Shown: positions 5,534 to 26,142 of the stretch, piece after piece
How the letters are laid out: each line of letters begins with the position of its first letter
How positions within the stretch are numbered: position 1 is the stretch's first letter
Assembly (NCBI GenBank): GCA_964520205.1
Contig: CAZFOA010000004.1
Coordinates: 1 to 38,739 of the forward strand
Source of the DNA: an uncultured Verrucomicrobiota bacterium
Lineage (GTDB): Bacteria > Verrucomicrobiota > Verrucomicrobiia > Limisphaerales > BOG-1460
Length of the DNA stretch: 38,739 nucleotides
Reading direction: 5' to 3'
The notes under the pieces: generated by a model
Database searches by the model: none
Told to the model about the DNA's origin: nothing
The model's input: the letters and a program-made list of their open reading frames with translations, nothing else
Made by a program: the position numbers and the translations under genes

Positions 5534-5545
5534 TGCCGGATTCAA

Positions 5546-6416: not shown

Positions 6417-6426
6417 TTCATCCAGA

Positions 6427-6570
6427 GCGGCCGTAGAGGGCCGCATCTGAGGATGTCAAACAACGGATTGAGGGTGGAGCGGAAGCAAGTTGGCCGGCAG
6501 AACCGTCGCGGCCAGCAAGTGCGGAGCCTTGCACCGGTTGCGGACTTGATTTTGGCGGAAGACCTCCGCC
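6427..6570 (+). promoter_or_regulatory. Structured leader between the NusG paralog and the priming transferase (two GC hairpins)
   Basis: Hairpin 1 is GCGGCC-gtagag-GGCCGC at 6427-6444. Hairpin 2 is GGCGGA-agacc-TCCGCC at 6554-6570. Neither is followed by a clean T tract. Confidence 0.25.
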
Positions 6571-6610
6571 GTTCGTTCGCAAGGTGCCTTGAGATTTTGA
6601 AATCAGAATC

Positions 6611-7375: not shown

Positions 7376-7405
7376 AACTCAATCCTTCAGCAGAAATAAA
7401 TACAT

Positions 7406-8518: not shown

Positions 8519-9030
8519 ATCAACCCATTCATGTGAGCAACCCAACACAGCCGCTTCAACTCATCGCACCGGATGTCAAACTGGGCCAGGGGGTGCGGAT
8601 TTTTGGCTTCGTCAATCTTTATGGATGTGAAATCGGCGATGAAGTCAAAATCGGGACGTTCGTCGAAGTTCAAAAAGGGGCGAAGATCGGGAATCGCTGC
8701 AAGATTTCCAGCCATACCTTCATTTGTGAAGGGGTCACGCTGGAAGACGAGGTGTTCGTCGGGCATGGGGTCATGTTTACAAACGACCTCTATCCGCGGG
8801 CGACGAACAGCGGCGGTGGCTTGCAAACGGAAGCGGACTGGCAGTGCGTGCCCACACGGGTCAAACGAGGCGCTTCAATCGGGTCCGGCGCCACGCTCCT
8901 CTGCGGGATCACCGTGGGTGAAAACGCCTTGATCGGAGCCGGCAGCGTGGTGACCAGGGACGTGCCGGACTGGGCCGTGGTGGTTGGCAATCCGGCGCGG
9001 GTTGTCAAATCGCTGGCGCCCAAGGGCTGA
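8515..9030 (+). CDS. Left-handed beta-helix (hexapeptide) N-acetyltransferase, WbpD/WlbB-like
   Basis: Hexapeptide repeats are IGDEVKIGTFVEVQKGAKIGNRCKISSHTFI and IGSGATLLCGITVGENALIGAGSVV. The C-terminal GNPARVV is present. It is translationally coupled to the WbpB-like gene. Confidence 0.85.
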   Translation: MNQPIHVSNPTQPLQLIAPDVKLGQGVRIFGFVNLYGCEIGDEVKIGTFVEVQKGAKIGNRCKISSHTFICEGVTLEDEVFVGHGVMFTNDLYPRATNSGGGLQTEADWQCVPTRVKRGASIGSGATLLCGITVGENALIGAGSVVTRDVPDWAVVVGNPARVVKSLAPKG

Positions 9031-9161: not shown

Positions 9162-11450
9162 GTGAAGCAGAGCGGACGCAGCGATATGAACGACGGCACA
9201 CCACAAGAAAAACCAGCCGAAGGAATGAGCCTGGACTCGATTTACTTCGTCCTGTTTCGGCGGAAGTGGATCATCCTCATTTGTGCCGCGCTGGGCTTCC
9301 TGGGGGCTGCGACGCTGTTTTCACTGAAGCCGCCGCGGTATCGCTCTGAAGCGAAGTTGTTCATTCGCTACGTGGAGGAAGGCAAATCGCTGAGTCCACC
9401 CGGAGATCATTCCAACTCGCGGCCCCTCAACGAACAGGAGACCAGCATTCTCAGCGCCGAACTGGAAATCTTGCAGAGCGAGGACGTGGCGCGACAAGTG
9501 GTTTCCAACATGGGCCCGGCAAAGATCCTGGCCAAGATGGGAGGAAACACCTCGGATTTCGATCGGGCCGTTGGTGTCGTTTCCAGCTATATGGAAGTCT
9601 ACCTGCCCGCCAATAGCAGCGTGGTTTCCATCATTTTTCAGCATCCGGATCCCGAGGTCGCGCAAGAGGTGCTGGACCAGATCATCACCGCCTACATCAG
9701 GAAACACAAGGAGATGCATCAACCGGTCGGGATGTTTGGTGATTTCATGAATCAGGAGACGGAGCGATTGCGCACCAAACTGGCTGAGACGGAGGGGCAG
9801 CTCCGGGCGGCAAAAGCCAAAGCCGGCGTGACTTCGATTGAGGATGCAAAGCGGGACGACGCGCAGCAAATCACCAGGATTCGCGGGGAGATCCTCGCCG
9901 CCCAGGTGGACCTGGTCCGGCACCAGGCCGCGATGGACGAACTGCCCAAGCCCGCTCCCGTCCATTCCGAGCCGACCAACGCCGAGCCCGGTGTTCCGCC
10001 GGAACGGATCAACGATTATGGGATGATTTGCGCGCGGCTTGATTACTTCACCAAACGGGCGTTCGAGCTTCAGAACGAATTCACAACCAACAGCACGTTG
10101 GTGCTCGAAAACCGGCAGCAGATCGACGACACCGCGGCGCTTAAGAAGAACCTGGAGGAACAATACCCGAAATTGACGACCTCGGGCATTTCTTCGCGGA
10201 TGGCATCCGGGCAATCGGGGGGGGGATCGTTTGATCCGACGGCGGAAGCCATCCAGGTGCGAGCGCTCAATATGACGATTGATGTCCTGAACTCGCAACT
10301 GAGCCTGATTCAGCGCAACCTCGCGAAGGTTGACGACATGGAACCGGTCATCGAGGAACTCCAGCGGAACAAGGATCTGATGGAGGCGGACATTAAGTAC
10401 TTCGCGACGAGCCAGGAACGTTCCCGCATCGAAGGGGCCATGGGATCCGACAAGGCGCCCAACATCGGCATTCTTCAGGGGCCATCGTCTCCCTCCAAAG
10501 GGTGGTCCAAACCCTTCAAGAAAAAAGTTCAAATGGTCGCCGTGGGCGGCTGCCTGGGCGGCATTGCCCTGGCATTCCTGCTGGAGTTGGTTCTGGATCG
10601 CTCCGTGAAGCGGCCCGGCGACGTGACTGCGAAATTGCGGTTGCCGTTGCTCATTTCCATTCCCGACCTCACCTGGAACGGAAACCACAGGCGCCAATTC
10701 ACCACAACGGTGAAGGAATCAATGCGTTTGAAGAGTGGAGATGGGGAGCCGGCCGCCGGCGAAGGAGCACCGGAACAGAGCCTCGGAATGCCGATCGCCA
10801 TCTGGGACCGCGCCCATCCGCTGCGCCGCTTTTATGAAGGATTGCGGGACCGGTTGATCGTTCATTTTGAAGTGGCGAACATGACGCAGAAACCGAAGTT
10901 GGTGGCGGTGACCAGTTGCGGCGCAGGAGTCGGAGTGACCAGCATCGCGGCCGGGCTGGCGGCATCCCTTTCAGAGACCGGAGACGGCAATGTGCTCCTG
11001 GTGGATATGAACAGCGAGCAGGGAGCTTCGCAGCAGTTTTATCGGGGACAGCCCGCCTGCAGACTCGACGATGCTTTGGACAGTGAAACGATGAAAAGCG
11101 CGCTCGTCCACGCAAACCTCTACGTCGCTTCAGAGAGTTCCGGGAGCGACAAGCTCCCCCGCGTTCTGCCCGGCAGGTTCGCCAGCCTGATGCCCAAGCT
11201 CAAGGCGAGCGACTATGACTATATCATTTTCGACATGCCTCCGGTCAGCCAGACGAGCATGACCCTGCGCGCGGCCCGGATCATGGACATGGTGCTGCTC
11301 GTGATCGAAGCGGAAAAGACCGGCCTGGAGGTCGTCAAGCAGACCGCCGTTTGGCTCGAGGAATCCAAAGTGAGCGCAAATGCGGTGCTCAACCGGACAC
11401 GCAGCTACATTCCTTCGTGGTTGCATCAGGATTTTCTGAACGAACCTTGA
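9162..11450 (+). CDS. Polysaccharide co-polymerase (Wzz/GumC-type domain) fused to a degenerate P-loop (BY-kinase-like) domain
   Basis: The Wzz N-terminus with TM1 is FRRKWIILICAALGFLGAATLF. A long coiled periplasmic region and TM2 (VAVGGCLGGIALAFLLELV) follow. The C-terminal ParA/BY-kinase-like domain has Walker A-like SCGAGVGVTS and Walker B-like YIIFDMPP. The start is GTG at 9162 or ATG at 9186. Confidence 0.85.
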   Translation: MKQSGRSDMNDGTPQEKPAEGMSLDSIYFVLFRRKWIILICAALGFLGAATLFSLKPPRYRSEAKLFIRYVEEGKSLSPPGDHSNSRPLNEQETSILSAELEILQSEDVARQVVSNMGPAKILAKMGGNTSDFDRAVGVVSSYMEVYLPANSSVVSIIFQHPDPEVAQEVLDQIITAYIRKHKEMHQPVGMFGDFMNQETERLRTKLAETEGQLRAAKAKAGVTSIEDAKRDDAQQITRIRGEILAAQVDLVRHQAAMDELPKPAPVHSEPTNAEPGVPPERINDYGMICARLDYFTKRAFELQNEFTTNSTLVLENRQQIDDTAALKKNLEEQYPKLTTSGISSRMASGQSGGGSFDPTAEAIQVRALNMTIDVLNSQLSLIQRNLAKVDDMEPVIEELQRNKDLMEADIKYFATSQERSRIEGAMGSDKAPNIGILQGPSSPSKGWSKPFKKKVQMVAVGGCLGGIALAFLLELVLDRSVKRPGDVTAKLRLPLLISIPDLTWNGNHRRQFTTTVKESMRLKSGDGEPAAGEGAPEQSLGMPIAIWDRAHPLRRFYEGLRDRLIVHFEVANMTQKPKLVAVTSCGAGVGVTSIAAGLAASLSETGDGNVLLVDMNSEQGASQQFYRGQPACRLDDALDSETMKSALVHANLYVASESSGSDKLPRVLPGRFASLMPKLKASDYDYIIFDMPPVSQTSMTLRAARIMDMVLLVIEAEKTGLEVVKQTAVWLEESKVSANAVLNRTRSYIPSWLHQDFLNEP

Positions 11451-11814: not shown

Positions 11815-13122
11815 GTGATGATCCCATCCCCTTCCCGCGGCAACGCCGCCAATCCCGCCCCGGCCGCGCCCGTGCCGGAGATCAAGCCGCGTTCCGGCGC
11901 GCGGCGGGTGTGCATGATGACGCACTCGGTTTACGAGAGCGACAATCGCGTGCGCCGCTACGCCGAGACACTCGCGGAACGCGGGGACGTGGTCGAAGTC
12001 GCCGCGCTGCGAAGCCGGCCGGAGCTGCCCAGGGAGGAACTCATCGATGGCGTAAGGCTCTTCAGAATCCAGGATCGCTTCGACAAAACCGAAAAATCCA
12101 AGTCATCGTTTCTCTGGCCGCTTTTGCGTTTCCTGTGGGTGGGATCGCGCTGGATGACGCGGCGGCACGCCCGCCAACGCTTCGATCTGGTTCACGTTCA
12201 TAATCTCCCCGACTTCATGGTCTTTGCGGCATGGTATCCCAAACTGACGGGCACGCGGATCATTCTCGACATCCATGACATTGTTCCCGAGTTCTTCGCC
12301 AGCAAGTTCGGCTCGGGAAATCGCTCGGCGCTTGTTTGGGGATTGAAGCTGACCGAGAAACTTTCGGCCGGGTTTGCCAGCCATGTCATCCTGGCCAACC
12401 ATCTGTGGCTCGACAAATACACCGCCCGCTCGGCGTCGCCGAAGAAGTGCTCCGTGTTCATCAACAATGTTGACTCGCGCATTTTCCGGCCGGGTTTGCG
12501 CACCAGAACCGGCGGGAAGCCGGTGATTCTGTTTCCGGGCGGACTTCAATGGCATCAGGGACTGGACATTGCAATCCGGGCGCTTCCCAAATTGCATCGC
12601 CGGATACCGGAGGCGGAATTGCACATTTACGGCGAAGGCAGCATGAAACCGCAATTGATCGCCTTGACCGAAGAACTGGGCCTGAACGGGCGGGTTCGAT
12701 TCTTCAAATCTCTGCCTCTTCCTGAAATTGCCAAGGTGATGGCCAACGCGGACCTCGGGGTGGTGCCCAAGCGCGCGGACTCGTTCGGGAACGAGGCTTA
12801 CAGCACCAAGATCATGGAGTTCATGTCGGTGGGCGTTCCGGTGGCGGTGTCGAACACCCGGGTTGACCGGTATTATTTCAATGACTCGCTCGTGCGGTTT
12901 TTTGAGTCGGGCAACGACGATGCACTGGCGGAGGCGATGTTCGAGATATTGAACAACGGCGAGTTGCGGCGCGGTCTGGTATCGAGAGCATCCGATTACG
13001 TCGCCGTCAACAGTTGGGCGAGCCGCAGGGCGGATTACCTGCAGTTGGTTGACGCACTCGCCGCCCGCAAGGTCCCGGCGCTCAAGGGGCGCGATTCCAT
13101 CCCGCATAGCAGCCCGGCATGA
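11815..13122 (+). CDS. GT4-family glycosyltransferase
   Basis: The protein has a GT-B fold. The C-terminal donor-binding region carries an EX7E-like motif, GNEAYSTKIMEFMSVGVPV. The start is GTG at 11815 or ATG at 11818. Confidence 0.85.
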   Translation: MMIPSPSRGNAANPAPAAPVPEIKPRSGARRVCMMTHSVYESDNRVRRYAETLAERGDVVEVAALRSRPELPREELIDGVRLFRIQDRFDKTEKSKSSFLWPLLRFLWVGSRWMTRRHARQRFDLVHVHNLPDFMVFAAWYPKLTGTRIILDIHDIVPEFFASKFGSGNRSALVWGLKLTEKLSAGFASHVILANHLWLDKYTARSASPKKCSVFINNVDSRIFRPGLRTRTGGKPVILFPGGLQWHQGLDIAIRALPKLHRRIPEAELHIYGEGSMKPQLIALTEELGLNGRVRFFKSLPLPEIAKVMANADLGVVPKRADSFGNEAYSTKIMEFMSVGVPVAVSNTRVDRYYFNDSLVRFFESGNDDALAEAMFEILNNGELRRGLVSRASDYVAVNSWASRRADYLQLVDALAARKVPALKGRDSIPHSSPA

Positions 13123-14315
13123 ACGAGAAGATCGAAAGCAGTTTGAACCGCGTTTCCGGGTGGGTCGAAAACCACGCCTATAAGGCTTACGACCCTGGCG
13201 ACGGCCAGATGTCGTTCCTGAGCGCGCTGACCTTTGGCAGCGTTTTCCTGGAAAGAATCCTGACCGCCGGAGTGCTTCGGTCCCCTTTCAACATCCGCCC
13301 CCTGCTCGGAATCCGTCCTCATACCTCCACCAAAGGCATGGGGTACATGGCGTGGGGCTATCTCCGGAGATACAAGCTGACGGGTGACGAGCGTTTCGCC
13401 CAGCTCGCCACCACGTGCCTGGCATGGTTGATCGAGCATCGTGCGCCCCATTATCCTCAATTCTGCTGGGGCAATGATTTTACCTTTACGACTCGCGCCG
13501 GGAGGATACCGCGCCAGGAACCCACGATTGTCTGGAGCAGTCTGGTTGGCCAGGCCTTTGTGGACGCCTACGAAGCGCTGGGAACCGCGCGGTACCTGGA
13601 AGTGGCCTCGAGCGTCTGTGATTGGATTCTCAAAGTTCCCCGCGAAACAACGAAGTCGGGCCTGTGCCTGAGTTACGTTGCCTATAAACCGGTTTCCATT
13701 CACAATTCAAACATGCTTGGCGCCGCGTTGCTGGCCCGGGTCGGCGCGCTGACGGCTCGGAGCGAGGCTCGGGAAACCGCCCGGGACGCCATGCGCTACA
13801 GCTGTTCCCGGCAGAATCCGGACGGCGCGTGGTTCTATGGGGAGGCTCCCAAGTACCACTGGATCGACAATTTTCACACCGGTTACAATCTGGACTCCCT
13901 CAAGCGTTACCTCCAAAGCACGGGCGACCCGGAGTTCACCGGCCAACTCAAGCGCGGCTTTGCCTATTTCAAAGCCAACTTTTTCGAGCCGAACGGCCGC
14001 CCGAAGTACTACCACAACGAGTTGTTTCCGATCGACATCCAGTGCGCCGCACAGGCGATAGATACCCTGGCTTACTTTTCAGACGAGGACCCGGAGGCGC
14101 TCCCCTTGGCCTGCAGGGTCGCGGAATGGACGATTGACAATATGCAGTCAAGCGACGGCCATTTTTATTATCGGGATCTGGGATGGACGAAAACGCGGAC
14201 ACCCATGCTGCACTGGGGGCAGGCAACGATGTTCAAGGCGCTGGCTCATCTCGTGAGCAAGCTGGCGACAGCCGGTCCGGAGAAAGCAGTTCAGCAGATG
14301 GCGGCGGCCTCTTAA
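13119..14315 (+). CDS. Conserved hypothetical protein, probable (alpha/alpha)6-toroid fold (glycan-acting enzyme, function unknown)
   Basis: This 398-aa ORF is coupled to the upstream GT4 gene by an ATGA overlap. Repeated helical-hairpin signatures (NPDGAWFYGE, SSDGHFYYRD, WIDNFHTGYNLDSL) are reminiscent of six-hairpin glycosidase or epimerase folds. I recognise no catalytic motif. Confidence 0.6.
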   Translation: MNEKIESSLNRVSGWVENHAYKAYDPGDGQMSFLSALTFGSVFLERILTAGVLRSPFNIRPLLGIRPHTSTKGMGYMAWGYLRRYKLTGDERFAQLATTCLAWLIEHRAPHYPQFCWGNDFTFTTRAGRIPRQEPTIVWSSLVGQAFVDAYEALGTARYLEVASSVCDWILKVPRETTKSGLCLSYVAYKPVSIHNSNMLGAALLARVGALTARSEARETARDAMRYSCSRQNPDGAWFYGEAPKYHWIDNFHTGYNLDSLKRYLQSTGDPEFTGQLKRGFAYFKANFFEPNGRPKYYHNELFPIDIQCAAQAIDTLAYFSDEDPEALPLACRVAEWTIDNMQSSDGHFYYRDLGWTKTRTPMLHWGQATMFKALAHLVSKLATAGPEKAVQQMAAAS

Positions 14316-14329
14316 TTCTTTCTTGTCCG

Positions 14330-15313
14330 ATGCAAAAGCCAACCCTGAAATACGCCTTGATCACCCCGGCGCGAAACGAGGAAGCCTACCTCGAAGCCAC
14401 CATCCGCTCCGTGATTGCCCAGACTGTCCGCCCGTCCAAATGGGTGATCGTCAGCGACGGCTCGACGGACCGCACGGATGACCTGGCGAAGGCTTATGCC
14501 GCGCAGCATGACTGGATCGAACTGCTGCGCATGCCCGAACATCGCGATCGGCAGTTCGCCGCCAAAGCCCACTGTTTCAACGCCGGTTACGCCCGCCTCC
14601 AGGGCAGCGACTACGACATCATCGGCAATCTCGATGCCGACATCACGTTCGCTCCGGACTATTGTGAATTTCTCTTGGCGCAATTCGAGGCGATGCCGAA
14701 ACTGGGGGTGGCCGGCACACCGTTCGTCGAGGAAGCGGATCAGGCCGGCCAACACACTTACGCGCATCGTTTCGCCCAGCTCGAACACGTTTCCGGGGCC
14801 TGCCAGTTATTCCGGCGTGAATGCTTTCAAGCGGTGGGAGGTTACGTCCCGATCAAAGGTGGCGCCATCGATTGGATTGCCGTGACCACGGCACGGATGA
14901 AAGGCTGGCGGACGCGGACTTTTCTTGAGAAGACCTGTTTGCACCACCGCAAGCTGGGAACCGGAACGGACAGCAAGCTCATGGTGCGCTTCCGTTATGG
15001 TCAAAAAGCTTATTACGTCGGCGGACACCCGTTGTGGGAGTGCCTGAGAGGCATATTCCAGATGAGGCAGAAGCCGTTCATTGTAGGGGGCGGTTATTTC
15101 CTTGGCGGCTTTTTGTGGGCCGCGCTCACGCGGATGCCGCGGCCTATTTCCGCCGAGCTCATCGCGTTTCACCGCGCCGAGCAAATGGCACGCTTGAAAC
15201 GCTCGTTCACCGGAGGGCGCCGCGAAAACACCCCGGACGATGGGCTGACCCGAACGACCGGAAACGTTCCGCGCAATTCGGCGGCGGCCCAGCCGGAGTC
15301 CGGAAAGCGCTGA
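14330..15313 (+). CDS. GT2-family glycosyltransferase
   Basis: The start is trimmed to MQKPTLKYALITPARNEE. The GT-A signatures are IVSDGSTDRTDD and the DxD-like GNLDADI. The track ORF start (14183) overlaps the upstream gene. Confidence 0.85.
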   Translation: MQKPTLKYALITPARNEEAYLEATIRSVIAQTVRPSKWVIVSDGSTDRTDDLAKAYAAQHDWIELLRMPEHRDRQFAAKAHCFNAGYARLQGSDYDIIGNLDADITFAPDYCEFLLAQFEAMPKLGVAGTPFVEEADQAGQHTYAHRFAQLEHVSGACQLFRRECFQAVGGYVPIKGGAIDWIAVTTARMKGWRTRTFLEKTCLHHRKLGTGTDSKLMVRFRYGQKAYYVGGHPLWECLRGIFQMRQKPFIVGGGYFLGGFLWAALTRMPRPISAELIAFHRAEQMARLKRSFTGGRRENTPDDGLTRTTGNVPRNSAAAQPESGKR

Positions 15314-15351: not shown

Positions 15352-16338
15352 ATGGAAAACAAAACTGCAGAAGTGAGCGACCAAGGCAAATCGGCCCAAG
15401 CCCGGGTCCTCAGCGTCGAAGGCCGCAGGCTTGACTGCGGGGGCCGCTGGCTCAAGGTGGCGCGGATACATGATGAACTCTGGCTCGAAGGCCAGCCGGT
15501 CGAAAATCCGGGCGCCTTTCTGCCGGCTTTGGAACATTCCGGTTTGAAGGCCGACCTTTTCACATTCAGCCAGGCGCTGCCGGAAACCGAACCGAAATAT
15601 TCGTATCCGTTGGAATGGGATAATTGGGCGATTGCCGCCACGACGAATTTCGCGGCCTGGTGGGAAGGACTTCCCCAGGAATCGAGGAAGAACGTCCGGC
15701 GCGCGGAACGGCGCGGCGTGGTGGTGAAGCTGGTGGATTTCGACGACGAACTGGTTCGGGGCATCAAGGGCATTTACGACGAGACACCCCTCCGGCAGGG
15801 GCGCCTCTTCTGGCATTACAAAAAGGATTTCGAAACGGTCAGGCGGGAGAATTCGAGTTACGTGGAGCGCAGCCAGTTTATTGGCGCCTACCATCAGGAT
15901 GATTTGATTGGGTTCATCAAAATGGTGTATGTCGGCGCAACGGCCCGCATCATGCAAATCCTGTCGAAGGAGGGGCATGTTGACAAACGTCCGACGAATG
16001 CGTTGCTGGCCAAGGCCGTCGAGGCTTGTTCCCGGAAGGGTGCGTCGCATCTGATCTACGGCCAATATATCTACGGCTCCAAAAGCAACAGCCCGGTGAC
16101 CGTGTTCAAACGCAGGAACGGCTTCCAGCAGTTATTGCTTCCGCGGTATTATGTGCCATTGACCGCCAAAGGCCGGGCGGCGATCGCGCTCCGGCTGCAT
16201 CGTGGCGCAAAAGATCGGTTGCCCGAGTGGCTGGTTTCATCGCTGCTCAACGCGCGCCTTTGGTATTACGAACACGTGCGGTTCCGCCCGAAGCCGGGGG
16301 GCCTCCAGACGCCTGAACTCAAATCCTCAGGCACCTGA
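15352..16338 (+). CDS. FemAB-like GNAT-fold protein (Acetyltransf_6-type domain)
   Basis: The start is trimmed to MENKTAEV. The central and C-terminal region follows the FemAB-like pattern: ESRKNVRRAERRGVVVKL, then LVRGIKGIYDETPLRQGRLFWHY, DDLIGFIKMVYVGATARIMQI and TNALLAKAVEACSRKGASHLIYGQY. The first 90 aa or so match nothing I recognise. Confidence 0.7.
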   Translation: MENKTAEVSDQGKSAQARVLSVEGRRLDCGGRWLKVARIHDELWLEGQPVENPGAFLPALEHSGLKADLFTFSQALPETEPKYSYPLEWDNWAIAATTNFAAWWEGLPQESRKNVRRAERRGVVVKLVDFDDELVRGIKGIYDETPLRQGRLFWHYKKDFETVRRENSSYVERSQFIGAYHQDDLIGFIKMVYVGATARIMQILSKEGHVDKRPTNALLAKAVEACSRKGASHLIYGQYIYGSKSNSPVTVFKRRNGFQQLLLPRYYVPLTAKGRAAIALRLHRGAKDRLPEWLVSSLLNARLWYYEHVRFRPKPGGLQTPELKSSGT

Positions 16339-16402
16339 AGGAATGACCCGCAGATTCTTTAGGTTTGCCCTGATCCGTATCTTTGGATAAGAACGTGTCC
16401 CC

Positions 16403-16428
16403 GGCTGCCGGATCGGCAGCCTCTTTTT
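16403..16428 (+). terminator. Strong rho-independent terminator after the FemAB-like gene
   Basis: A perfect 8-bp stem pairs GGCTGCCG (16403-16410) with CGGCAGCC (16414-16421), with loop gat. It is followed by TCTTTTT. Confidence 0.7.
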
Positions 16429-16430
16429 AC

Positions 16431-16505
16431 GCCGGTGTAGCTCAACGTTAGAGCGGCTGATCTGTAATCAGCAGATGGAGTGTTCAATTCCTCCCGCCGG
16501 CTCCA
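16431..16505 (+). tRNA. tRNA-Thr(UGU)-like gene with encoded CCA and non-canonical core features (possibly non-proteinogenic or decaying)
   Basis: I folded the cloverleaf by hand. The acceptor is GCCGGTG/CGCCGGC, the D stem GCTC/GAGC and the anticodon stem GCTGA/TCAGC. The anticodon loop is TCTGTAA, the T loop TTCAATT, and the 3' end is discriminator T plus CCA. Deviations: the D loop AACGTTA lacks GG, position 33 is C, and the T-stem 5' strand GGAGTG has one more nt than CCTCC. Confidence 0.6.
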
Positions 16506-16571: not shown

Positions 16572-18368
16572 ATGCCCGCCGCCGCCATAAACACACGAAA
16601 TCAAAGCCCTGAGCCTCGGACCGGCCAGGAGCCGGCGCAAGTTTCCGGAGGCCTGACCGATCTGCAAATGGGCTTCGGAATCCGATGGTTGTGCCGGGAA
16701 AATTCCCCCGTAGTCTGGCGAACGGCATGGAATGAACGCCGGGACGTGTGCCTGCATTTCTCGGGTGAACATTTTATCGACCCGGAAAAAATGCCCGGGC
16801 GCACGACGGAAGGACATCGGTGGGACGGAGACGGAACCGCTTATCTGGTCCGACGGTATGAGGAGCTGGGACTCGATTTCCTGGCCGGGATCAACGGCTG
16901 GTTCAGCGGTCTATTGATTGATTTTCGCGTGAAGAAGGCGGTGCTCTTCAATGACCGCTACGGCCTCGGTCGCATTTATTATCACCAAAACTCCGAGGCC
17001 TTCTTTTTTTCTTCCGAAGCCAAGTCGCTCCTCGCGGCGCTGACTCGGACCCGAAGTCTGGATGAACGGGGATTGGCGGAATGGCTGAGTTGCGGTTGCG
17101 TGCTGCAGGACCGCACCTTGTTCTCCGGCATAGCGCTGCTGCCCCCGGGTTCGGCCTGGACTTTTTCGGCGGATGGCAGTCTGCAAAAGGACCGTTACTT
17201 CAGTCCAGAGACCTGGGAGTCCCAACCGCCGCTTTCGCCCACCGAGTACTACGAGCGCCTTCTGGAAACATTCCCCCGAATCCTGAAACGGTATGGCGAT
17301 GGACCGAAGAAAATTGCCATGTCGCTGACCGGCGGGCTGGATGGGCGGATGATCATGGCCTGGTCTCCGTTCGGCCCGGGCGAATTGCCCTGTTACACCT
17401 TCAATGGCCCGGTCCGCGACTGCGCGGATGTGAAGCTTGCGCGCCGGGTGGCGCAGGCCTGCGGGCAGACGCATCAAACCCTCACGCTCGACGATCCATT
17501 TTTCACCGAATTCCCGCAACTTGCCGGGAAAGCGATTCTGGCCAGCGACGGAGCCATGGACGTGACCGGAGCCGCCGAGTTGTATCTCAACCGCCTGGCT
17601 CGGCAGATCGCCCCGATCCGGCTCACGGGAAATTATGGCTCGGAAATTCTGCGCCGCCATGTCGCTTTCAGGCCGCGCGCGCTGCCCGGTGAACTTTTCT
17701 CGCCTGATTGTGGGCAGCTCATTCAGACCGCCGCCCGGACCTACGCCCAGGAAGCCGCCGGCAATCGTCTCGCGTTCATCGCCTTCAAGCAGGTTCCGTG
17801 GCACCATTTTTCACGCTTCGCCGTCGAGCGGTCGGAACTGGCCGTCCGCTCGCCGTTCCTGGACAATGATCTTGTGGCCCTGGCGTTCCAGGCTCCGCTT
17901 GAGTCGGCGGCCAGCCTGGAACCCACGTTGCGCCTGATCGCCGATGGCAATCCCCGGCTCGGCCTCATTCCCACCGACCGTGGCGTGACTTACCCGGCCG
18001 GCGGGGCGGCCAATCGCCTGCACCGTTCCGTGGCGGAATTTCTGGCGAAGGCCGAGTATGCCTGCGATTACGGCATGCCCGGCTGGCTGGCACGAGCGGA
18101 CCGATGCCTGACTCCGCTGCGATTGGAACGATGGTTCCTGGGCCGCCAGAAGTTCTGCCATTTCCGAAGTTGGTATCGCCGCCCGCTCGCCGGTTTCGTC
18201 AAAGAAGTTCTGCTGGATCCGCGTTCGCGCACCCGCTCCTACCTGAACGGATCCGCGCTTGAACCGATGGTTGCCGGTCATATTCGCGGCACCCGGAATT
18301 GCACCGTGGAAATCCACAAGCTGCTCACGCTGGAATTGATCCACCGCCTGCTCCTCGATCCTTCATGA
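16572..18368 (+). CDS. Asparagine synthetase B-like adenylating enzyme lacking the N-terminal glutaminase cysteine
   Basis: AsnB-like blocks are present: FSGEHF (GEIYN-like), INGWFSGLLIDFRVKKAVLFNDRYGLGRIYY and FFSSEAKSLL. The PP-loop-like motif is SLTGGLDG. None of the possible starts (TTG 16557, ATG 16572, ATG 16668) is followed by Cys. Confidence 0.85.
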   Translation: MPAAAINTRNQSPEPRTGQEPAQVSGGLTDLQMGFGIRWLCRENSPVVWRTAWNERRDVCLHFSGEHFIDPEKMPGRTTEGHRWDGDGTAYLVRRYEELGLDFLAGINGWFSGLLIDFRVKKAVLFNDRYGLGRIYYHQNSEAFFFSSEAKSLLAALTRTRSLDERGLAEWLSCGCVLQDRTLFSGIALLPPGSAWTFSADGSLQKDRYFSPETWESQPPLSPTEYYERLLETFPRILKRYGDGPKKIAMSLTGGLDGRMIMAWSPFGPGELPCYTFNGPVRDCADVKLARRVAQACGQTHQTLTLDDPFFTEFPQLAGKAILASDGAMDVTGAAELYLNRLARQIAPIRLTGNYGSEILRRHVAFRPRALPGELFSPDCGQLIQTAARTYAQEAAGNRLAFIAFKQVPWHHFSRFAVERSELAVRSPFLDNDLVALAFQAPLESAASLEPTLRLIADGNPRLGLIPTDRGVTYPAGGAANRLHRSVAEFLAKAEYACDYGMPGWLARADRCLTPLRLERWFLGRQKFCHFRSWYRRPLAGFVKEVLLDPRSRTRSYLNGSALEPMVAGHIRGTRNCTVEIHKLLTLELIHRLLLDPS

Positions 18369-19261
18369 GCCTGCCGCACCTTTGCATTTGCATCTGCACC
18401 TGCGGCCGGCCGCGCCTGCTCGAACGATTGCTGCGCGACATCGCGCGCCAGGACACGCGTGGCGAGTTCACTTTTTCGGTGGTGGTGGCCGACAACGACG
18501 CGGCGCAATCCGCGCGCGCGATTGCCGAGGCCTGCGCCCGCGAATGTCCGCTGGCGCTCACGTATGTCGTCGAGCCCGAGCGGAATATTGCGCTGGTCCG
18601 CAACACCGCGGTAGCCAATGCCACCGGCGATTTCCTGGTCTTCATCGATGATGATGAATTCCCGGTGCCGGATTGGCTTTTGAACCTGTTCCGCACCTGT
18701 GAAGCGCGCCAGGTTGCCGGGGTGCTGGCGCCGGTCATGCCGCATTTCGAACAGACTCCTCCCCGCTGGATCATCAAGGGCGGCTTTTATGACCGGCCAA
18801 CCCATCCCACCGGATTCGTCATGCCGTGGCAGGAATGCCGCACGGGCAATGTCCTGTTGCGGCGGAATATTTTCGACCCGGCCGAACCGCCTTTTCGCCG
18901 TGAATTCGGGACCGGCGGCGAGGATCAGGACTTCTTCCGGCGCATGATTGACAAAGGGCATCGGTTCGTGTGGTGCGACGAAGCCATCGCTTTCGAGGTC
19001 GTGCCGCCCTCCCGCTGGAGCCGGCGGTTCATGGTGAGCCGGGCGCTGCTGCGCGGCAGGAACTCGCTCCGGCACCGCCGCAACCGCGGTCGCAACCTGC
19101 TGAAATCGGCGGTCGCCATACCGGCTTATACGCTGGCTCTGCCGGTTCTGCTCGTCGCGGGGCAGCACCATTTCATGAGATACCTCGTCAAACTGGCCGA
19201 TCATACCGGCCGCCTGCTCGCGTCCGTGGGATTGAACCCGGTTCGGGAACGGCGCATGTAG
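18365..19261 (+). CDS. GT2-family glycosyltransferase
   Basis: The start is trimmed to MSLPHLCICICTCGRP, which overlaps the AsnB-like stop as ATGA. GT-A signatures are VVVADNDAAQS and FIDDDEF. Confidence 0.85.
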   Translation: MSLPHLCICICTCGRPRLLERLLRDIARQDTRGEFTFSVVVADNDAAQSARAIAEACARECPLALTYVVEPERNIALVRNTAVANATGDFLVFIDDDEFPVPDWLLNLFRTCEARQVAGVLAPVMPHFEQTPPRWIIKGGFYDRPTHPTGFVMPWQECRTGNVLLRRNIFDPAEPPFRREFGTGGEDQDFFRRMIDKGHRFVWCDEAIAFEVVPPSRWSRRFMVSRALLRGRNSLRHRRNRGRNLLKSAVAIPAYTLALPVLLVAGQHHFMRYLVKLADHTGRLLASVGLNPVRERRM

Positions 19262-19331: not shown

Positions 19332-20753
19332 ATGACTTCCCGGCTGATATTATTCGCGTGCCTCGCGATGTTTTGGTGGCTGATCAAGCGCGACATCGCT
19401 TGGCGCCAGGGACTTTCCAGGGCGATTTGGATTCCGACTTTATGGGTGGGAATCCTGGCGTCGAGACCGCTTTCGACCTGGCTCGGGTTCGGCGGCGTGC
19501 GGGAGGACCTCGAATCCGCGACGGCGGGAAGTCCCATCGACATGCTCGGATATTTGAGCCTGATTGTGGCAGCGGCGGTGGTTCTGAACCGGCGGCGGTT
19601 GAATTGGGGCGTACTGATCAACCGGAACTGGCCCGTATTTCTGTTTTACGGGTATTTGCTGGTGAGCGTGGTGTGGGCCAACAACCCCTTTGTCTCTTCG
19701 AAGCGTTGGTTCAAGGAATTCGGCAACATTCTCGTGGGCCTGGTCATCCTGACCGAGGTCAATCCCGAGCAGGCGCTCCGGGCGGTGTTCGTCCGCTGCG
19801 GCTATCTGCTGATCCCGCTGTCGCTGGTGTTCATTCGCTATTTTCCGGATTGGGGCCGGCGCTACAACGTCCATTCCGGCGAACTGGAAGCCATCGGTGT
19901 GACCTTTCAGAAGAACTCGCTCGGGGCGATGGTGCTGGTCTGCAGCCTGGTGATCCTTTGGGATTGGTTTGAACTGCAGCGGACTCGCCACCAGCAAGGC
20001 GGAAAGAAGCGGCGACTGGATTCCGGCGTCCGCTTGGCCTTGCTGGCCATCGCCGTTTATCTGCTTCATCTTTGTGACAGCAAAACCTCGATCGTTTGCC
20101 TGATGATGAGCGCCGGCATTCTCACCGCCACCCGGTTGCCGCTGTTGCGCAAGCGCCTGGCTGCCCTCTCCGGCCTGGCGGTGGCCGGGATCGCTGGGTT
20201 TTTCATCCTGGATCAAATGTTTGGCATCAAGGAAATGGTGGTGCAAAGCCTCGGGCGGGACATGACGTTCACCGGCAGAACGGACGTCTGGCAGGTGCTG
20301 TTGAAAGTGGGAACCGACCCGTTGATCGGAACCGGATTCTGCAGTTTTTGGGACGACCCGTCGTTCCAATCCAAACTGCCCTATTGGGTCGCCTTCTCCG
20401 CGCACAATGGCTACCTGGAAATCTACCTCGGCGGCGGACTCGTGGGCTTGTGCCTCCTGGCGGTTATGCTGGGCGCGACCGGCGTTCGCATCAACCGATC
20501 GCTGGCCCGGGGCGGCGATTTCGCCGTCATGCGTTTTGCCGTGTTTGTGGTGACTCTCATCGCCAACATTTCCGAATCCAATATCGCCGTCATGACGCCC
20601 GTAGGCTTTCTTTTCCTGCTGGCGGCCATCGGCCAGGCCGGACCGGAGCGGGCCCGGCAGCCGGCCGGAGCCTCCGCTGCCCGCAAGCCGACGGGACCTT
20701 CCGGCGGCGGCGAGGCGGATGAACCCGCTGTTTGCTCGCAGCCATCGCGATGA
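19332..20753 (+). CDS. O-antigen ligase/polymerase family membrane protein (Wzy_C domain)
   Basis: The protein has 10 or more predicted TM helices. The characteristic loop region ends in FSAHNGYLEIYLGGGLVGL. The C-terminal tail is low in complexity. Confidence 0.8.
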   Translation: MTSRLILFACLAMFWWLIKRDIAWRQGLSRAIWIPTLWVGILASRPLSTWLGFGGVREDLESATAGSPIDMLGYLSLIVAAAVVLNRRRLNWGVLINRNWPVFLFYGYLLVSVVWANNPFVSSKRWFKEFGNILVGLVILTEVNPEQALRAVFVRCGYLLIPLSLVFIRYFPDWGRRYNVHSGELEAIGVTFQKNSLGAMVLVCSLVILWDWFELQRTRHQQGGKKRRLDSGVRLALLAIAVYLLHLCDSKTSIVCLMMSAGILTATRLPLLRKRLAALSGLAVAGIAGFFILDQMFGIKEMVVQSLGRDMTFTGRTDVWQVLLKVGTDPLIGTGFCSFWDDPSFQSKLPYWVAFSAHNGYLEIYLGGGLVGLCLLAVMLGATGVRINRSLARGGDFAVMRFAVFVVTLIANISESNIAVMTPVGFLFLLAAIGQAGPERARQPAGASAARKPTGPSGGGEADEPAVCSQPSR

Positions 20754-21568
20754 GCGCCCCCGAAACAATCCCGGCACGGATCATCCAGACGGGGAAGAGC
20801 CGCGATTTGCCGCTCCTCGCCCGGGCGGCGGTGGCCAACCTGAAATGCCTGAACCCGGGATTTGAATATCTCTTCTTTGATGATGCGGAAGTGGATGCTT
20901 TCGTGCAGAAGGAATACCCGCAATATCGCGAGGTTTTCGACCACTTCCGCTTTCGCATCCAGAAATATGATTTTTTCCGCTATCTCGCCGTCTATCACTT
21001 CGGCGGTTTCTACTTTGATCTGGACGTTTTTCTGGCAACCAGCCTGGAGCGGCTCCTGTCCCGCGAGTGCGTGTTTCCGTTCGAAGAACTGACGTTGAAC
21101 CGGCACCTGCGTTCGCACCATGGCATGGACTGGGAAATGGGGAACTATGCCTTTGGCGCCGCGCCGCGACACCCGTTTTTGAAGGCGGTGATCGAGAATT
21201 GCGTCAAAGCGCAACGAGATCCCCAATGGGTTTTGCCCATGTTGAAAGGCGTGCCATTCTTTTTCCGATCCGAGTTCCAGGTCCTGAACACGACCGGCCC
21301 CGGCCTGGTCACCCGAACCTTTGCGGAAAATGCGCGGCTGGCTCAGGGCGTCACCATCCTGTTTCCGGACGACGTTTGCGATCCGCGGAACTGGCATCAA
21401 TTCGGCGATTTCGGCGTTCATTTGATGCACGGCTCCTGGCGGGAACGGGGGAATTTCCTCTGGCGCCGCCTGGCGTGCCTGTGGGAGGCCCGGGTCCAGA
21501 AGCAGTTGATGGTGGAAAGCCGCAAACAGGGAAAGACGCGCACGATCCCGGTGGCGCAACCGCAATGA
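20750..21568 (+). CDS. GT32-like glycosyltransferase (DXD sugar-binding motif family)
   Basis: The N-terminus reads IPARIIQTGKSRDLP. The family signature is FFDDAEVDAFV...YDFFRYLAVYHFGGFYFDLDV. The ATG at 20750 overlaps the upstream stop as ATGA. Confidence 0.8.
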   Translation: MSAPETIPARIIQTGKSRDLPLLARAAVANLKCLNPGFEYLFFDDAEVDAFVQKEYPQYREVFDHFRFRIQKYDFFRYLAVYHFGGFYFDLDVFLATSLERLLSRECVFPFEELTLNRHLRSHHGMDWEMGNYAFGAAPRHPFLKAVIENCVKAQRDPQWVLPMLKGVPFFFRSEFQVLNTTGPGLVTRTFAENARLAQGVTILFPDDVCDPRNWHQFGDFGVHLMHGSWRERGNFLWRRLACLWEARVQKQLMVESRKQGKTRTIPVAQPQ

Positions 21569-22341
21569 AGCTCACGCGTCCCTGGGCCCGAGCGCGGCAA
21601 GCCCTCCAGCGTCGCATGGCGAAATGGTGCGGGCGCCGCTCGTTTACCCTGCCGGAAGGCCGGGCTCTGGTTTCGTTCAGCTTTGACGACTTCCCGAGGT
21701 CGGCGTTGTCCAACGGGGGAAACATCCTGGAACGGTTTGGCCTGGCAGGCACTTATTACGCCTCGTTCGGATTGATGGCGCAAACCACGCCCACCGGCGA
21801 AGCGTTTCTTCCGGACGACGTGAAACCGCTGCTCAACCGCGGGCACGAACTCGGTTGCCACACGTTCGATCATTGTCCCGCCTGGGAAACGGAGCCTTCA
21901 ATTTTCGAAGCTTCCATCAACAAGAACCGGGAGGCTTTGCACCGGCTTGCGCCCGGAACGGAGTGTCACACCCTTTCTTATCCGATCAGTTATCCGCGCC
22001 CGGACACCAAGCGGCGGGCAGCCACGCATTTCGCCTGCTGCCGGGGCGGCGGCCAGACTTTCAATGCGGGCCGGATGGACTTGAACTATCTCTCGGCCTT
22101 TTTTTTGGAGCAAAGCCGGGACCAACCCGGGGAGGTCAAGGCGCTCATCGAGCACAATCGCCGGGCCGGCGGCTGGCTCATCTTCGCCACGCACGACGTT
22201 TGCGAGCGGCCGACCCGTTACGGTTGCACACCCGGTTTTTTTGAAGACATCGTCCGGCATGCAGTGGAGTCGGGCGCGGAAATCCTGCCGGTATTCCGGG
22301 CCTGGGAGGTCATCCGGGCGCGCGCCGGGAAGCAGCCATGA
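21565..22341 (+). CDS. Polysaccharide deacetylase (CE4, NodB homology domain)
   Basis: The start is trimmed to MKLTRPW, with an ATGA overlap. NodB motif 1 is FSFDDF and motif 2 is GCHTFDH. Confidence 0.8.
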   Translation: MKLTRPWARARQALQRRMAKWCGRRSFTLPEGRALVSFSFDDFPRSALSNGGNILERFGLAGTYYASFGLMAQTTPTGEAFLPDDVKPLLNRGHELGCHTFDHCPAWETEPSIFEASINKNREALHRLAPGTECHTLSYPISYPRPDTKRRAATHFACCRGGGQTFNAGRMDLNYLSAFFLEQSRDQPGEVKALIEHNRRAGGWLIFATHDVCERPTRYGCTPGFFEDIVRHAVESGAEILPVFRAWEVIRARAGKQP

Positions 22342-23417
22342 ATGCGGAAGTGCACGAAGCGGCAACGACCGGCGCCGGTTTCTCCGGGCAGCGAACGCCG
22401 TCCGATCCCCGGTTGCCGGCGCCGGCTCTTTCGAACCCGCGCAACGGGGCTTTGGACTTTACCAAGGGAGCGCTGGTGCTTTGCATGGTGGTTTACCATT
22501 GCTTCAACTATTTCTACCGCGATCAGAACGTCCTGAAGTATCTGCACTTCCTGCCCCCGTCATTCATTTTCATCACCGGTTTTATGATTACCGGAATTTA
22601 TCTGGCGAAGTATGACCCCGGCGACGCGCGTCTGCATGGGCGGCTTTTTGTTCGAGGCCTCAAGCTGCTGGCGATTTTTGTCGGCTTGAACCTCGCCGTA
22701 AACCTGCTTTTCCGCTCGAACTACGACCAACGGCAGCTTGGGTTGGCATCTTTTGTAACGCAATGGGAAACGGTCTTCCTCACGGGCGGCAGCCGGGCGG
22801 CGGTGTTCGAGGTGCTGCTGCCCATCAGCTATTTGCTGTTGCTCATGGGAGTCCTGCTGAAGGGGTACCGGTTGATTCCGAATTTTCTGCAGGCTGTGGC
22901 GGCCGTCACGGTGATCGGATGCCTGATTCTGGCCTGGCAGGGTCGATTGCCTGCCAACCTGGATTTGTTAAGCATGGGGTTGCTGGGCATTGTGGCCGGG
23001 TTCGTTCCCCGGCCGCGGATTGACCGTTTCACCAGCCATCTGGCCGCATTGGGACTGGCTTACCTGGCCTATCTGGTGGTCATCAGCATCTGGTATCCGA
23101 CTTACGCCCTGAACATCCTGGGCATCTGCCTGACGCTGGCGCTTTTCTACGGAGTGGGGGTTCAGTCGGGAGAAACGGGGTTGTTTCAGCGCCAGATTAT
23201 CCTGCTCGGCAAATACTCGTTGCTCGCCTATATCGTCCAGATCGGAGCGCTGCAGGGACTGCTTCGGGTTATGCGTCACCTCGATTGGAGCGCCGGCCGG
23301 CTGCCGGTGGCTTTGATCGCGACTTCGCTGCTCATGCTGGCAGCCATCGAAGCGGTGGACTATGCCAGAACCAAATCGGGGACCGTGAATCTGGCCTACA
23401 AAGCGGTTTTCGGGTGA
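22338..23417 (+). CDS. Polytopic membrane protein, acyltransferase-3/DUF1624-like
   Basis: The ATGA overlap marks the start. The N-terminal signature is LDFTKGALVLCMVVYHCFNYF, followed by FIFITGFMI and LGKYSLLAYIVQ. There are about 9-10 hydrophobic segments. Confidence 0.55.
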   Translation: MNAEVHEAATTGAGFSGQRTPSDPRLPAPALSNPRNGALDFTKGALVLCMVVYHCFNYFYRDQNVLKYLHFLPPSFIFITGFMITGIYLAKYDPGDARLHGRLFVRGLKLLAIFVGLNLAVNLLFRSNYDQRQLGLASFVTQWETVFLTGGSRAAVFEVLLPISYLLLLMGVLLKGYRLIPNFLQAVAAVTVIGCLILAWQGRLPANLDLLSMGLLGIVAGFVPRPRIDRFTSHLAALGLAYLAYLVVISIWYPTYALNILGICLTLALFYGVGVQSGETGLFQRQIILLGKYSLLAYIVQIGALQGLLRVMRHLDWSAGRLPVALIATSLLMLAAIEAVDYARTKSGTVNLAYKAVFG

Positions 23418-24860: not shown

Positions 24861-24867
24861 TCTGTTC

Positions 24868-26016: not shown

Positions 26017-26142
26017 GCATCCCCTCCTCGGGCGTGCTGGCGTCGCCGATCTCTGGGTTCGTGTTAACTTCGATTTTGCCGCCTGATGATCTTGTCGCAT
26101 TTTAGGCTGGTCACGATTAAATCTGGACAGGCTGGCGCCGCG

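Follow-up and report, generated by a model that had tools for sequence, protein, structure and literature searches.

The window analyzed here, that is, the whole stretch of 38,739 nucleotides of contig CAZFOA010000004.1 from an uncultured Verrucomicrobiota bacterium, carries a polysaccharide locus in which a gene for a 328-aa protein of the Fem-related GNAT type is followed on the same strand by an irregular tRNA-Thr(UGU) gene and then by a gene resembling asparagine synthetase (AsnB-like). We consider it likely, as the best explanation of these observations, that the tRNA is a dedicated, non-decoding donor for glycan N-aminoacylation by the 328-aa transferase. The fold class of the protein, the linkage of gene, tRNA, and AsnB-like gene, the pattern of constraint on the tRNA, and the polysaccharide context were all established computationally. 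A first-pass annotation of the window had already paired a dedicated donor tRNA with a Fem-like transferase, a reading that is supported by the fold, by linkage in both search directions, and by the constraint on the tRNA; it had also located the gene (open reading frame [ORF] 15352-16338, +), the tRNA (16431-16505, +), and a carbohydrate esterase family 4 (CE4) domain (within 21565-22341) correctly. The elements of the module are the following.

15352-16338, + strand: 328-aa tandem-GNAT protein of the Fem/VimA type, a predicted aminoacyl-tRNA-dependent aminoacyltransferase (from the ORF, its homologues, and AlphaFold2 [AF2] with Foldseek).
16403-16430, + strand: terminator-like hairpin plus U run, a local feature between the 328-aa gene and the tRNA.
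16431-16505, + strand: Thr-identity tRNA with anticodon UGU, probably non-decoding (ARAGORN, Rfam, and covariance model).
16572-18368, + strand: AsnB-like (asparagine-synthetase-like) gene whose product lacks the nucleophilic Cys (Pfam Asn_synthase and GATase_7).

Several properties of the window tRNA would suit an ordinary translational tRNA-Thr(UGU) that holds a conserved position beside a polysaccharide operon by happenstance, next to an unrelated GNAT. ARAGORN called a tRNA-Thr(UGU) of 75 nt with a 7/5 cloverleaf at 16431-16505(+), Rfam scored the tRNA model at 54.3 bits over 16431-16502 compared with a gathering score of 29, and the Thr identity elements are present together with an encoded CCA (G1:C72, C2:G71, G35, U36, and U73). 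However, the altered core that had been noticed on first reading proved real: the D loop is AACGUUA and lacks G18G19, the T stem (GGAG-u-G/CCUCC) contains a bulged U, and position 33 is C. The window tRNA thus lacks three canonical features of an elongator tRNA-Thr: U33, G18G19, and a T stem of 5 regular base pairs. It has A at position 37, and positions 32 and 38 form a Watson-Crick pair, with RNAfold closing the loop to 5 nt.

The association of gene and tRNA was surveyed from both sides. The protein-seeded scan took one genome per species, giving 275 relatives, of which 80 loci were examined; the tRNA-seeded scan covered metagenome contigs with an exact T-arm/acceptor pattern only, matched at least 120 loci, and was counted over those 101 loci that had 400 nt or more of upstream sequence. 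Built on 56 distinct tRNA sequences, a covariance model scored family members at 81-101 bits, with the window tRNA at 101 bits compared with 39 bits for an ordinary tRNA-Asn, and recovered the tRNA of locus L014 on top of the ARAGORN set. A family tRNA was present in 69 of the 80 protein-seeded loci, in 68 of them directly downstream of the Fem-like gene and on the same strand. Starting from the tRNA, the Fem-like gene lay directly upstream on the same strand in 99 of the 101 loci, and L096, where the gene overlaps the tRNA, is a further case (about 100 of 101). The synteny survey that the first-pass annotation had called for thus found the adjacency kept in relatives. By this tRNA-seeded count, the tRNA occurs almost only behind a Fem-like gene; across about 200 soil-bacterial loci the pair is almost never apart, which exceeds chance.

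The distance from stop codon to tRNA ranged from an overlap to a few hundred nt and was typically tens of nt, and in many loci the tRNA begins 0-20 nt past the stop codon or overlaps it. Because this spacing is 0-50 nt in most loci, the tRNA must there be co-transcribed with the gene and cut out. A strong terminator had been described ahead of the window tRNA, and the hairpin is indeed present (16403-16421, followed by UCUUUUU and ending just before the tRNA), but a hairpin plus T run precedes only 4 of 180 family tRNAs; it is thus specific to this window, and we rejected it as a part of the module. The idea that the tRNA marks an integration site was also rejected, because it sits inside the operon between two co-conserved same-strand genes.

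Some loci showed other arrangements. The family tRNA is duplicated in tandem in L003 (6992-7066 and 7255-7329) and in L025 (6997-7072 and 7160-7235), and in L058 tandem Fem-like paralogues (6001-6930 and 7071-8009) share one downstream tRNA (8059-8133). In L054, where the family tRNA is missing, the Fem-like gene is closely preceded by a canonical tRNA-Asn(GUU) at 5894-5969, and another lies further upstream in L102 (7162-7233, - strand); both are probably coincidental.

Constraint on the tRNA was read from the 56-sequence alignment, in which 99.6% of the cells pair and 56 double compensatory changes occur, a level that 0 of 500 shuffles reached and that slides of the register fell short of. 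The bulged T-stem register is backed by changes of A51:U64 to G:C. Across phyla there is hardly any variation in the acceptor stem, in U73, in the T arm, or in most of the D arm; the anticodon stem covaries freely, and its loop is relaxed. Position 33 is C or A, not U, in 9 of the 56 sequences, position 37 is a pyrimidine in 5, and 32:38 is a Watson-Crick pair in 33, while GG is found in the D loop of 4 and is missing from 52. At position 34, U was counted 84 times, C 73 times, A 16 times, and G never among 183 family tRNAs, and the tRNAs of L007 and L008 differ from that of L009 solely at this position, with U37 in all three. For threonyl-tRNA synthetase (ThrRS) we took the identity set 1:72, 2:71, G35, and U36, following PMC9976931 together with the Escherichia coli set: G1:C72 and C2:G71 are invariant, and G35-U36 is retained in 49 of 56. 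CCA is encoded in 149 of the 183. This pattern fits selection for recognition by ThrRS or glycyl-tRNA synthetase (GlyRS) and by the transferase, and not selection for decoding.

A change of amino acid identity was visible within the same family. C35-C36 is present in 7 of the 56 sequences, and in 6 of those 7 the pair 3:70 has changed from C:G to G:C. This combination of G3:C70 and UCC (Gly type) was found in L028, L032, L035, L036, L063, and L080, and two further lineages, L046 and L170, have UCC without the acceptor change. Together with G1:C72, C2:G71, and U73, G3:C70 makes an acceptor typical of bacterial tRNA-Gly (identity sets in PMC9976931). The proteins encoded beside the G3:C70 tRNAs form one neighbor-joining clade of 5, are 52-69% identical, and share K113R and G237C. 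The identity role of 3:70 differs between species. Because the Gly-class proteins are one clade, the switch counts as a single event, so that the change from Thr to Gly identity with G3:C70 reads as one old switch, maintained since then; for the same reason, K113R and G237C were rejected as a case of independent co-evolution with Gly identity. Locus L184 holds a tRNA-like gene (3339-3413, - strand) after a GT4-like gene; its acceptor is of the Gly type (GCGGAGG/CCUCCGC, U73, CCA), its D arm normal, and its anticodon arm aberrant. It scores 33 bits with the Rfam tRNA model and may be another decayed donor tRNA.

A parallel module with a Ser-type tRNA was also found. In L006, a paralogue of the Fem-like gene lies upstream (4949-5833; 294 aa, 33% identical) and is followed 37 nt later by an odd tRNA of 93 nt (5871-5963). 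This paralogous family of about 292 aa comprises at least 120 clusters above 52% identity, and the order paralogue, tRNA-Ser-like gene, AsnB-like gene was observed in 10 of 10 distinct loci (L006, L202, and L204-L211). Besides that of L006, the Ser-type tRNAs are located as follows.

L202, 4931-5025: Ser-type tRNA.
L204, 4984-5076: Ser-type tRNA.
L205, 4879-4970: Ser-type tRNA.
L206, 4910-5004: Ser-type tRNA.
L207, 3401-3497: Ser-type tRNA.
L208, 3428-3523: Ser-type tRNA.
L209, 3379-3469: Ser-type tRNA.
L210, 3560-3654: Ser-type tRNA.
L211, 3376-3469: Ser-type tRNA.

These are class-II tRNAs with the acceptor GGAGAGG/CCUCUCC (G1, G2), G73, an encoded CCA, and a long variable arm; their T arm is normal, as is their D arm, which contains GG. 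Their anticodon arm forms a helix, at most 8 bp long, that ends in GCAA (5 loci), GUAA, GUCA, or a U-rich loop of 5-6 nt; the anticodon loop has mostly been replaced by a GNRA tetraloop (GCAA or GUAA). ARAGORN assigned this RNA an odd four-base anticodon or missed it (L204), and Rfam at a permissive threshold, run on five of the loci, gave a sub-threshold tRNA-Sec match in two (37 vs 47 bits) and nothing tRNA-like in three. Seryl-tRNA synthetase (SerRS) does not read the anticodon, which is not a serine identity element (PMC9976931). Since SerRS ignores it, the parts conserved here are only those needed by the synthetase; the Ser-type RNA, judged by its primary structure, cannot decode, yet keeps what SerRS reads, namely the variable arm, G73, and G1/G2. 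The two modules appear to agree in this respect: where the synthetase reads positions 35 and 36 these are kept and 34 drifts, and where it ignores the anticodon the loop is lost.

Given these results, an ordinary tRNA-Thr placed here by chance is an extremely improbable account. The two-way linkage spans several phyla; the anticodon shifts among UGU, CGU, and AGU between near-identical tRNAs (L007 and L008 vs L009), with A34 in 16 of 183 and G34 never; U33 or the purine at 37 is breached in some members, G18G19 is missing in most, and the T stem is bulged; one clade has turned Gly-type, and the sister module has a tRNA without an anticodon loop. The true ordinary tRNAs in the same loci, moreover, are canonical and score higher (63-67 bits). 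A decoding role for the family tRNA is thus strongly argued against by positions 33 and 37, G18G19, the T stem, the drifting position 34, the Gly switch, and the loop-less Ser sister.

The class of the 328-aa protein emerged from its predicted structure. For the AF2 model (predicted local distance difference test score, pLDDT, 87.4; predicted template-modeling score, pTM, 0.83), the 20 best Foldseek matches in the PDB were all aminoacyl-tRNA-dependent transferases (E 1e-11 to 1e-9, template-modeling score [TM] 0.50-0.56, 262-331 columns), comprising Sbb17/Sba18, Weissella FemX, MprF, and the A-PGS and L-PGS synthase domains, with Sbb17/Sba18 as the best match (E 1.7e-11, sequence identity 14%). 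Tandem GNATs that use acetyl-coenzyme A (acetyl-CoA), VipF and 2wpw, ranked lower (TM 0.36-0.42). A profile search of the PDB by sequence returned just single-domain GNAT acetyltransferases and missed the Fem proteins, so that structure comparison was needed. The position of the CoA pyrophosphate loop (Q/RxxGxG/A) reads H209-x-D211-K212-R-P-x-N216-A without a conserved Gly; homologues have T, M, I, A, or P where the motif has Gly. The case that the protein might be an ordinary acetyl-CoA GNAT, which the first-pass annotation had named as a refuting case, therefore failed to fit on both loop and fold. The motifs RKNVRR, YDETPxRQGRxFWHY, HxDKRPxN, and EFKRRNGF are invariant in the family; within the last, F252-K253 lies on helix 248-255 and is a candidate counterpart of the catalytic Phe-Lys pair of FemX (F304-K305) and DhpH-C (F328-K329), which sits in domain 2 on the helix that comes next to beta5 on its C-terminal side (PMC12945691). 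These features place the 328-aa protein, by its modeled structure, in the Fem/MprF/Orf11-class GNAT fold, closer to the users of aminoacyl-tRNA than to those of acetyl-CoA.

Homologues supplied the sequence evidence. The N-terminus of the 328-aa protein aligns with theirs, and among 24 homologues scanned singly, 13 match PF13480 (Acetyltransf_6), 11 match PF00583, and 9 match PF02388 (FemAB), the last only weakly (best E 0.0026) and with no match for the window protein. The PF13480 gathering score of 22 bits is exceeded by P0090 (28.0 bits) and P0100 (28.5 bits), whose matches span HMM positions 4-139 of 143. The initial label FemAB-like/Acetyltransf_6 accordingly holds by way of the homologues and Foldseek, but not by any Pfam match of the window protein itself. 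The family is large: more than 4,388 clusters at 90% identity match, and 1,321 representatives of 50% clusters match at E<=0.001 in a library of 1.84 billion proteins, mainly from Verrucomicrobiota and Acidobacteriota. A tblastn search of plasmids gave no match.

These data also bear on a second account, in which the tRNA-like RNA is a cis-acting element (an RNase P/Z processing site, a stabilizer, or a charging sensor) and the GNAT is an acyl-CoA-dependent N-acyltransferase. Such an element would suit the position within the operon between two co-conserved genes, often 0-20 nt from the stop codon or overlapping it; in addition, the sequence matches of the GNAT include the acetyltransferases PaiA (8e-5) and, weakly, rimI, and the glycan enzyme VimA, to which we return below, was first annotated as an acetyl-CoA transferase (PMC7468200). 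However, a processing site needs no G35-U36, no U73, and no encoded CCA (149 of 183), nor a coordinated change of anticodon and 3:70 to the Gly-type set. The Ser-type RNA keeps G73, G1, G2, and the long variable arm but no anticodon, which is a synthetase footprint, and the fold of the GNAT is nearer to aminoacyl-tRNA than to acetyl-CoA users, with the CoA pyrophosphate motif not conserved. We therefore judged the cis-element account very unlikely.

The best-conserved protein neighbor is the AsnB-like gene. Of the 80 protein-seeded loci, 76 have it, lying a median of 361 nt downstream of the Fem-like gene; a count over the 114 loci of at least 6 kb found it in 101. This Cys-less gene, the invariant protein partner of the module, was absent from the first-pass account of the locus. 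AsnB-like genes in these loci fall into two subfamilies: a canonical one (MCGI...HRGPDDEG), usually upstream of the Fem-like gene, and a second one downstream of the tRNA, with an MPGI(A/V)GII start and without the Cys nucleophile and other glutaminase motifs. The window protein belongs to the second; its N-terminus is MPAAAINT, Cys2 is missing, and the PP-loop SLTGGLDG is retained. Its nearest solved structure is 7ylz, a hydroxyamidotransferase of the TsnB9 type; a lasso cyclase model matches it at 2.8e-12, and TIGR03108 scores it at 81.7 bits against a cut-off of 816.9. The Cys-less enzyme is predicted to be an ATP-dependent amide former acting on the same intermediate as the transferase.

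Other partners were less constant. A homologue of the 398-aa protein encoded at 13119-14315 occurs in 51 of 80 and 53 of 114 loci; the family is highly conserved (65-75% identical, more than 4,700 clusters), and Foldseek with its AF2 model (pLDDT 87.0) returned glucose and cellobiose 2-epimerases, GH76, and GH88, the closest being the sugar 2-epimerases and GH76. Reading the translation by eye, without a predictor, showed no obvious signal peptide, and we took the protein to be cytoplasmic. JGI names this family 'rhamnogalacturonyl hydrolase YesR'. A glycosyltransferase family 2 (GT2) partner like that at 14183-15313 was found in 49 of 80 loci, and a Wzy_C partner in 39 of 80 and 48 of 114. 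Other loci contain YdjC-type deacetylases, and CE4- or YdjC-type and WbpB-like genes lie within 6 kb in a minority.

The window itself holds a Wzx/Wzy-type polysaccharide locus of 59% GC with its genes all on the same strand, and outside the module its features are as follows.

52-1599: B12-binding radical SAM/DUF4080 protein, flanking the locus, with no link to the module seen.
1657-2892: alpha-galactosidase, flanking the locus, with no link to the module seen.
4067-4795: LuxR-type response regulator.
4841-5533: Wza-like exporter.
6611-7375: initiating sugar-phosphate transferase.
7406-8518, + strand: WbpB-like GFO/IDH/MocA oxidoreductase (Pfam GFO_IDH_MocA), a marker of the 2,3-diamino uronic acid (Wbp) pathway.
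8515-9030, + strand: WbpD-like hexapeptide N-acetyltransferase (Pfam Hexapep), a marker of the same pathway.
9162-11450: Wzz plus tyrosine kinase.
11815-13122: glycosyltransferase family 4 (GT4).
13119-14315, + strand: 398-aa (alpha/alpha)6-barrel protein (AF2 and Foldseek).
14183-15313, + strand: GT2 directly upstream of the 328-aa gene (Pfam Glycos_transf_2).
18299-19261: GT2.
19332-20753, + strand: Wzy_C membrane protein, O-antigen polymerase/ligase-like (Pfam Wzy_C).
20732-21568: DXD glycosyltransferase.
21565-22341, + strand: CE4 polysaccharide deacetylase, VimE-like, a candidate maker of the free amine (Pfam Polysacc_deac_1).
22338-23417: acyltransferase-3 (Acyl_transf_3).
23421-24860: MBOAT.
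24796-26016: DUF1574-like gene, weak match.
26086-26364: 92-aa ORF.

Because WbpB-, WbpD-, CE4 (VimE)-, and AsnB-like genes occur together in the window, the closest known system is the Wbp/Vim pathway, in which WbpA, WbpB, WbpE, and WbpD make UDP-GlcNAc(3NAc)A, the CE4 enzyme VimE is proposed to take off the 2-N-acetyl group, and VimA puts serine (Porphyromonas gingivalis) or glycine (Tannerella forsythia) on N-2 and decides which amino acid is used (PMC7468200). VimA carries an N-acetyltransferase annotation together with a match to TIGR03019, the uronamide is formed by the AsnB-like WbpS, and the free amine of the amino acid set by VimA is the attachment point of cargo proteins of the T9SS (type IX secretion; PMC7468200). 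No amino-acid donor is named there, and tRNA is never mentioned (0 occurrences; Veith et al. 2020, PMC7468200). Both systems appear to combine WbpB/WbpD-type, CE4, FemAB/TIGR03019-like N-acyltransferase, and AsnB-like activities in a glycan locus, and the Ser and Gly of that pathway overlap with the Thr, Gly, and Ser suggested by the tRNAs here. They differ in that no tRNA gene is described for Wbp/Vim, in that the protein here is not a TIGR03019 member, and in that the AsnB-like protein of the module lacks the glutaminase Cys, unlike WbpS. With a VimA-like gene beside the WbpB-, WbpD-, CE4-, and AsnB-like genes of the window, a chemistry of deacetylation followed by N-aminoacylation has a direct precedent; the proposed chemistry is a variant of a known pathway, and what is new here is the proposed donor. 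The deacetylated or 3-amino sugar acceptor suggested by the first-pass annotation fits this pathway.

A further comparison is with the staphylococcal FemXAB/FmhB system, which also joins a tandem-GNAT aminoacyl-tRNA transferase to dedicated tRNAs (non-proteogenic tRNA-Gly; PMC7826273, PMC9976931), although its acceptor is peptidoglycan lipid II. The staphylococcal tRNAs keep a normal anticodon loop, whereas here the loop is irregular or, in the Ser sister class, lost, and the T stem is bulged; the tRNAs here also lie inside an operon, have Thr, Gly, or Ser identity, come from an unrelated lineage, and have lost more of the decoding features. The staphylococcal lineage has been reported in staphylococci only (PMC7826273), and since the tRNAs here are not of that lineage, the relation is one of analogy and not of membership. 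Sbb17/Sba18 (PDB 9wqw, 9wqy) and Orf11 likewise use a GNAT fold to move an amino acid from aminoacyl-tRNA onto the amine of an amino sugar (streptothrisamine), but they belong to a small-molecule antibiotic pathway of Streptomyces with no polysaccharide locus, and the review PMC12945691 describes no dedicated tRNA for them. The irregular tRNAs and allo-tRNAs of soil Acidobacteria (Mukai et al., PMC5389517) are also non-canonical, and some are charged yet unused in translation; they have 8/4 or 9/3 acceptor/T arrangements and lie near toxin-antitoxin or transposon genes, whereas the tRNAs here are 7/5 with a bulge and tied to a Fem-like gene, and are thus of a different kind. The XrtA/PEP-CTERM pair TIGR03019 and TIGR03108 similarly sets a FemAB-like gene beside an AsnB-like one in environmental exopolysaccharide loci, but the window proteins fall outside both models. 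We know of no tRNA described for that pair. In the literature we found no account of polysaccharide loci that encode a tRNA together with a Fem-like gene, though our coverage was incomplete and prior work may exist; to our knowledge, operon-encoded, probably non-decoding candidate donor tRNAs of three identities, one without an anticodon loop, are undescribed.

In the mechanism that we propose, the 328-aa protein would be a cytoplasmic tandem-GNAT of the Fem/VimA kind that depends on aminoacyl-tRNA, and the 75-nt gene would supply its private donor, charged by the housekeeping ThrRS through G1:C72, C2:G71, and G35-U36. This tRNA would be barred from EF-Tu and the ribosome by its bulged T stem, its irregular anticodon loop, and its lack of G18G19, and the transferase would recognize the near-invariant acceptor, T, and D parts. 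The acceptor of threonine would then be a free amine on a sugar intermediate of the Wzx/Wzy-type polysaccharide, linked to a nucleotide or a lipid; this sugar is most likely a de-N-acetylated 2,3-diamino uronic acid by analogy with Wbp/Vim. The weakest step is the last, in which the Cys-less AsnB-like enzyme may add a further amide, either a uronamide from free ammonia or an acylated alpha-amine.

Several results weigh against this donor-tRNA mechanism. The window protein has no Pfam match even at E<=10, its sole NCBIfam match is a sub-threshold rimI with none significant, and the TIGR03019 (pepcterm_femAB) search proposed on first reading did not make it a member: the window protein has no match at E<=10 and just 2 of 24 homologues match at E 0.031, so that the family is a distant cousin of the PEP-CTERM-associated FemAB and not a member. 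The family tRNA is missing in 11 of the 80 protein-seeded loci, 2 of them cut off no more than 200 nt from the gene; six acidobacterial loci without the tRNA were examined, and in these the Fem-like gene abuts or overlaps the AsnB-like gene, so that the enzyme evidently can work without a neighboring tRNA. One tRNA-seeded locus (L106, ~5260-5335) has no Fem-like gene upstream; its tRNA follows an unrelated 404-aa ORF and has GG in the D loop and C37, with the bulged T stem retained. No sigma-70-like promoter was found for the window tRNA, while the hairpin separates it from the gene, which makes its expression in this window uncertain. WbpA- and WbpE-like genes were not found within the window, and the CE4 deacetylase, although present here as the first-pass annotation had stated, has a homologue within 6 kb in just 14 of 80 and 17 of 114 loci; CE4 was therefore rejected as an obligate partner.

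The scarcity of CE4-type deacetylases near the module also favors a third account, in which the transferase and its dedicated tRNA are genuine but the acceptor is something other than a sugar amine: the hydroxyl of a sugar or lipid (giving an O-aminoacyl ester, as with MprF), the head group of a lipid, a protein, or a peptide. Foldseek matches the O-ester formers MprF, A-PGS, and L-PGS no less well than FemX, and the AsnB-like partner has relatives acting on peptides or small molecules (the lasso cyclase model and the TsnB9-type 7ylz). However, all of the neighborhoods examined are polysaccharide loci, with GT2, GT4, Wzy_C, Wzz-kinase, Bac_transf, and sugar epimerases. An amino sugar is also the substrate of the top structural matches, and in the one characterized glycan system that has a related enzyme, the product is an N-aminoacyl sugar (PMC7468200). 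No small conserved precursor-peptide ORFs turned up, although no systematic search was aimed at them. On balance, a different acceptor seems unlikely.

Extending glycan N-aminoacylation from a donor tRNA beyond the window, we lean, by a small measure, toward the view that soil Verrucomicrobiota, Acidobacteriota, and neighboring phyla hold an unrecognized class of operon-encoded, non-decoding 'biosynthetic' tRNAs (Thr-type, Gly-type, and loop-less Ser-type), each co-evolving with its own VimA/Fem-like transferase and a Cys-less AsnB-like ligase that together would attach an amino acid to a glycan intermediate. On this view, the VimA-type enzymes of the Wbp/Vim pathway, which makes the T9SS cargo anchor and perhaps the PEP-CTERM/exosortase acceptor, would also depend on aminoacyl-tRNA, and the alpha-amine would serve to form a second amide, as either a cross-link or an anchor. 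Neither a T9SS gene nor an exosortase gene was identified within the window. If this view is correct, the amino-acid donor would be named for VimA-type glycan aminoacylation, the step left open by PMC7468200, and the use of a dedicated tRNA for non-ribosomal chemistry would be a solution reached repeatedly, with the tRNA hard-wired into the operon, and no staphylococcal oddity. A tRNA so used would shed what its synthetase does not read, with a GNRA tetraloop in place of the anticodon loop as the extreme, and the modules would offer a natural experiment separating the charging from the decoding parts of a tRNA. The same view would flag mislabeled or missed RNA genes, since the Thr-type would be counted as an ordinary isoacceptor, in some genomes with a non-bacterial AGU anticodon. 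The soil phyla in which the module is common are abundant and poorly cultured, so that exopolysaccharides decorated with threonyl, glycyl, or seryl groups may be widespread.

Two further observations concern the downstream part of the window. ARAGORN called a 93-nt tRNA-Pro(UGG) at 22927-23019(+), which lies inside the Acyl_transf_3 ORF (22338-23417) and is unseen by Rfam; we rejected it as a probable false positive. The layout of 23421-26364, with MBOAT, the DUF1574-like gene, and the 92-aa ORF, resembles an AlgI/DltB-type O-acylation set for the same polysaccharide.

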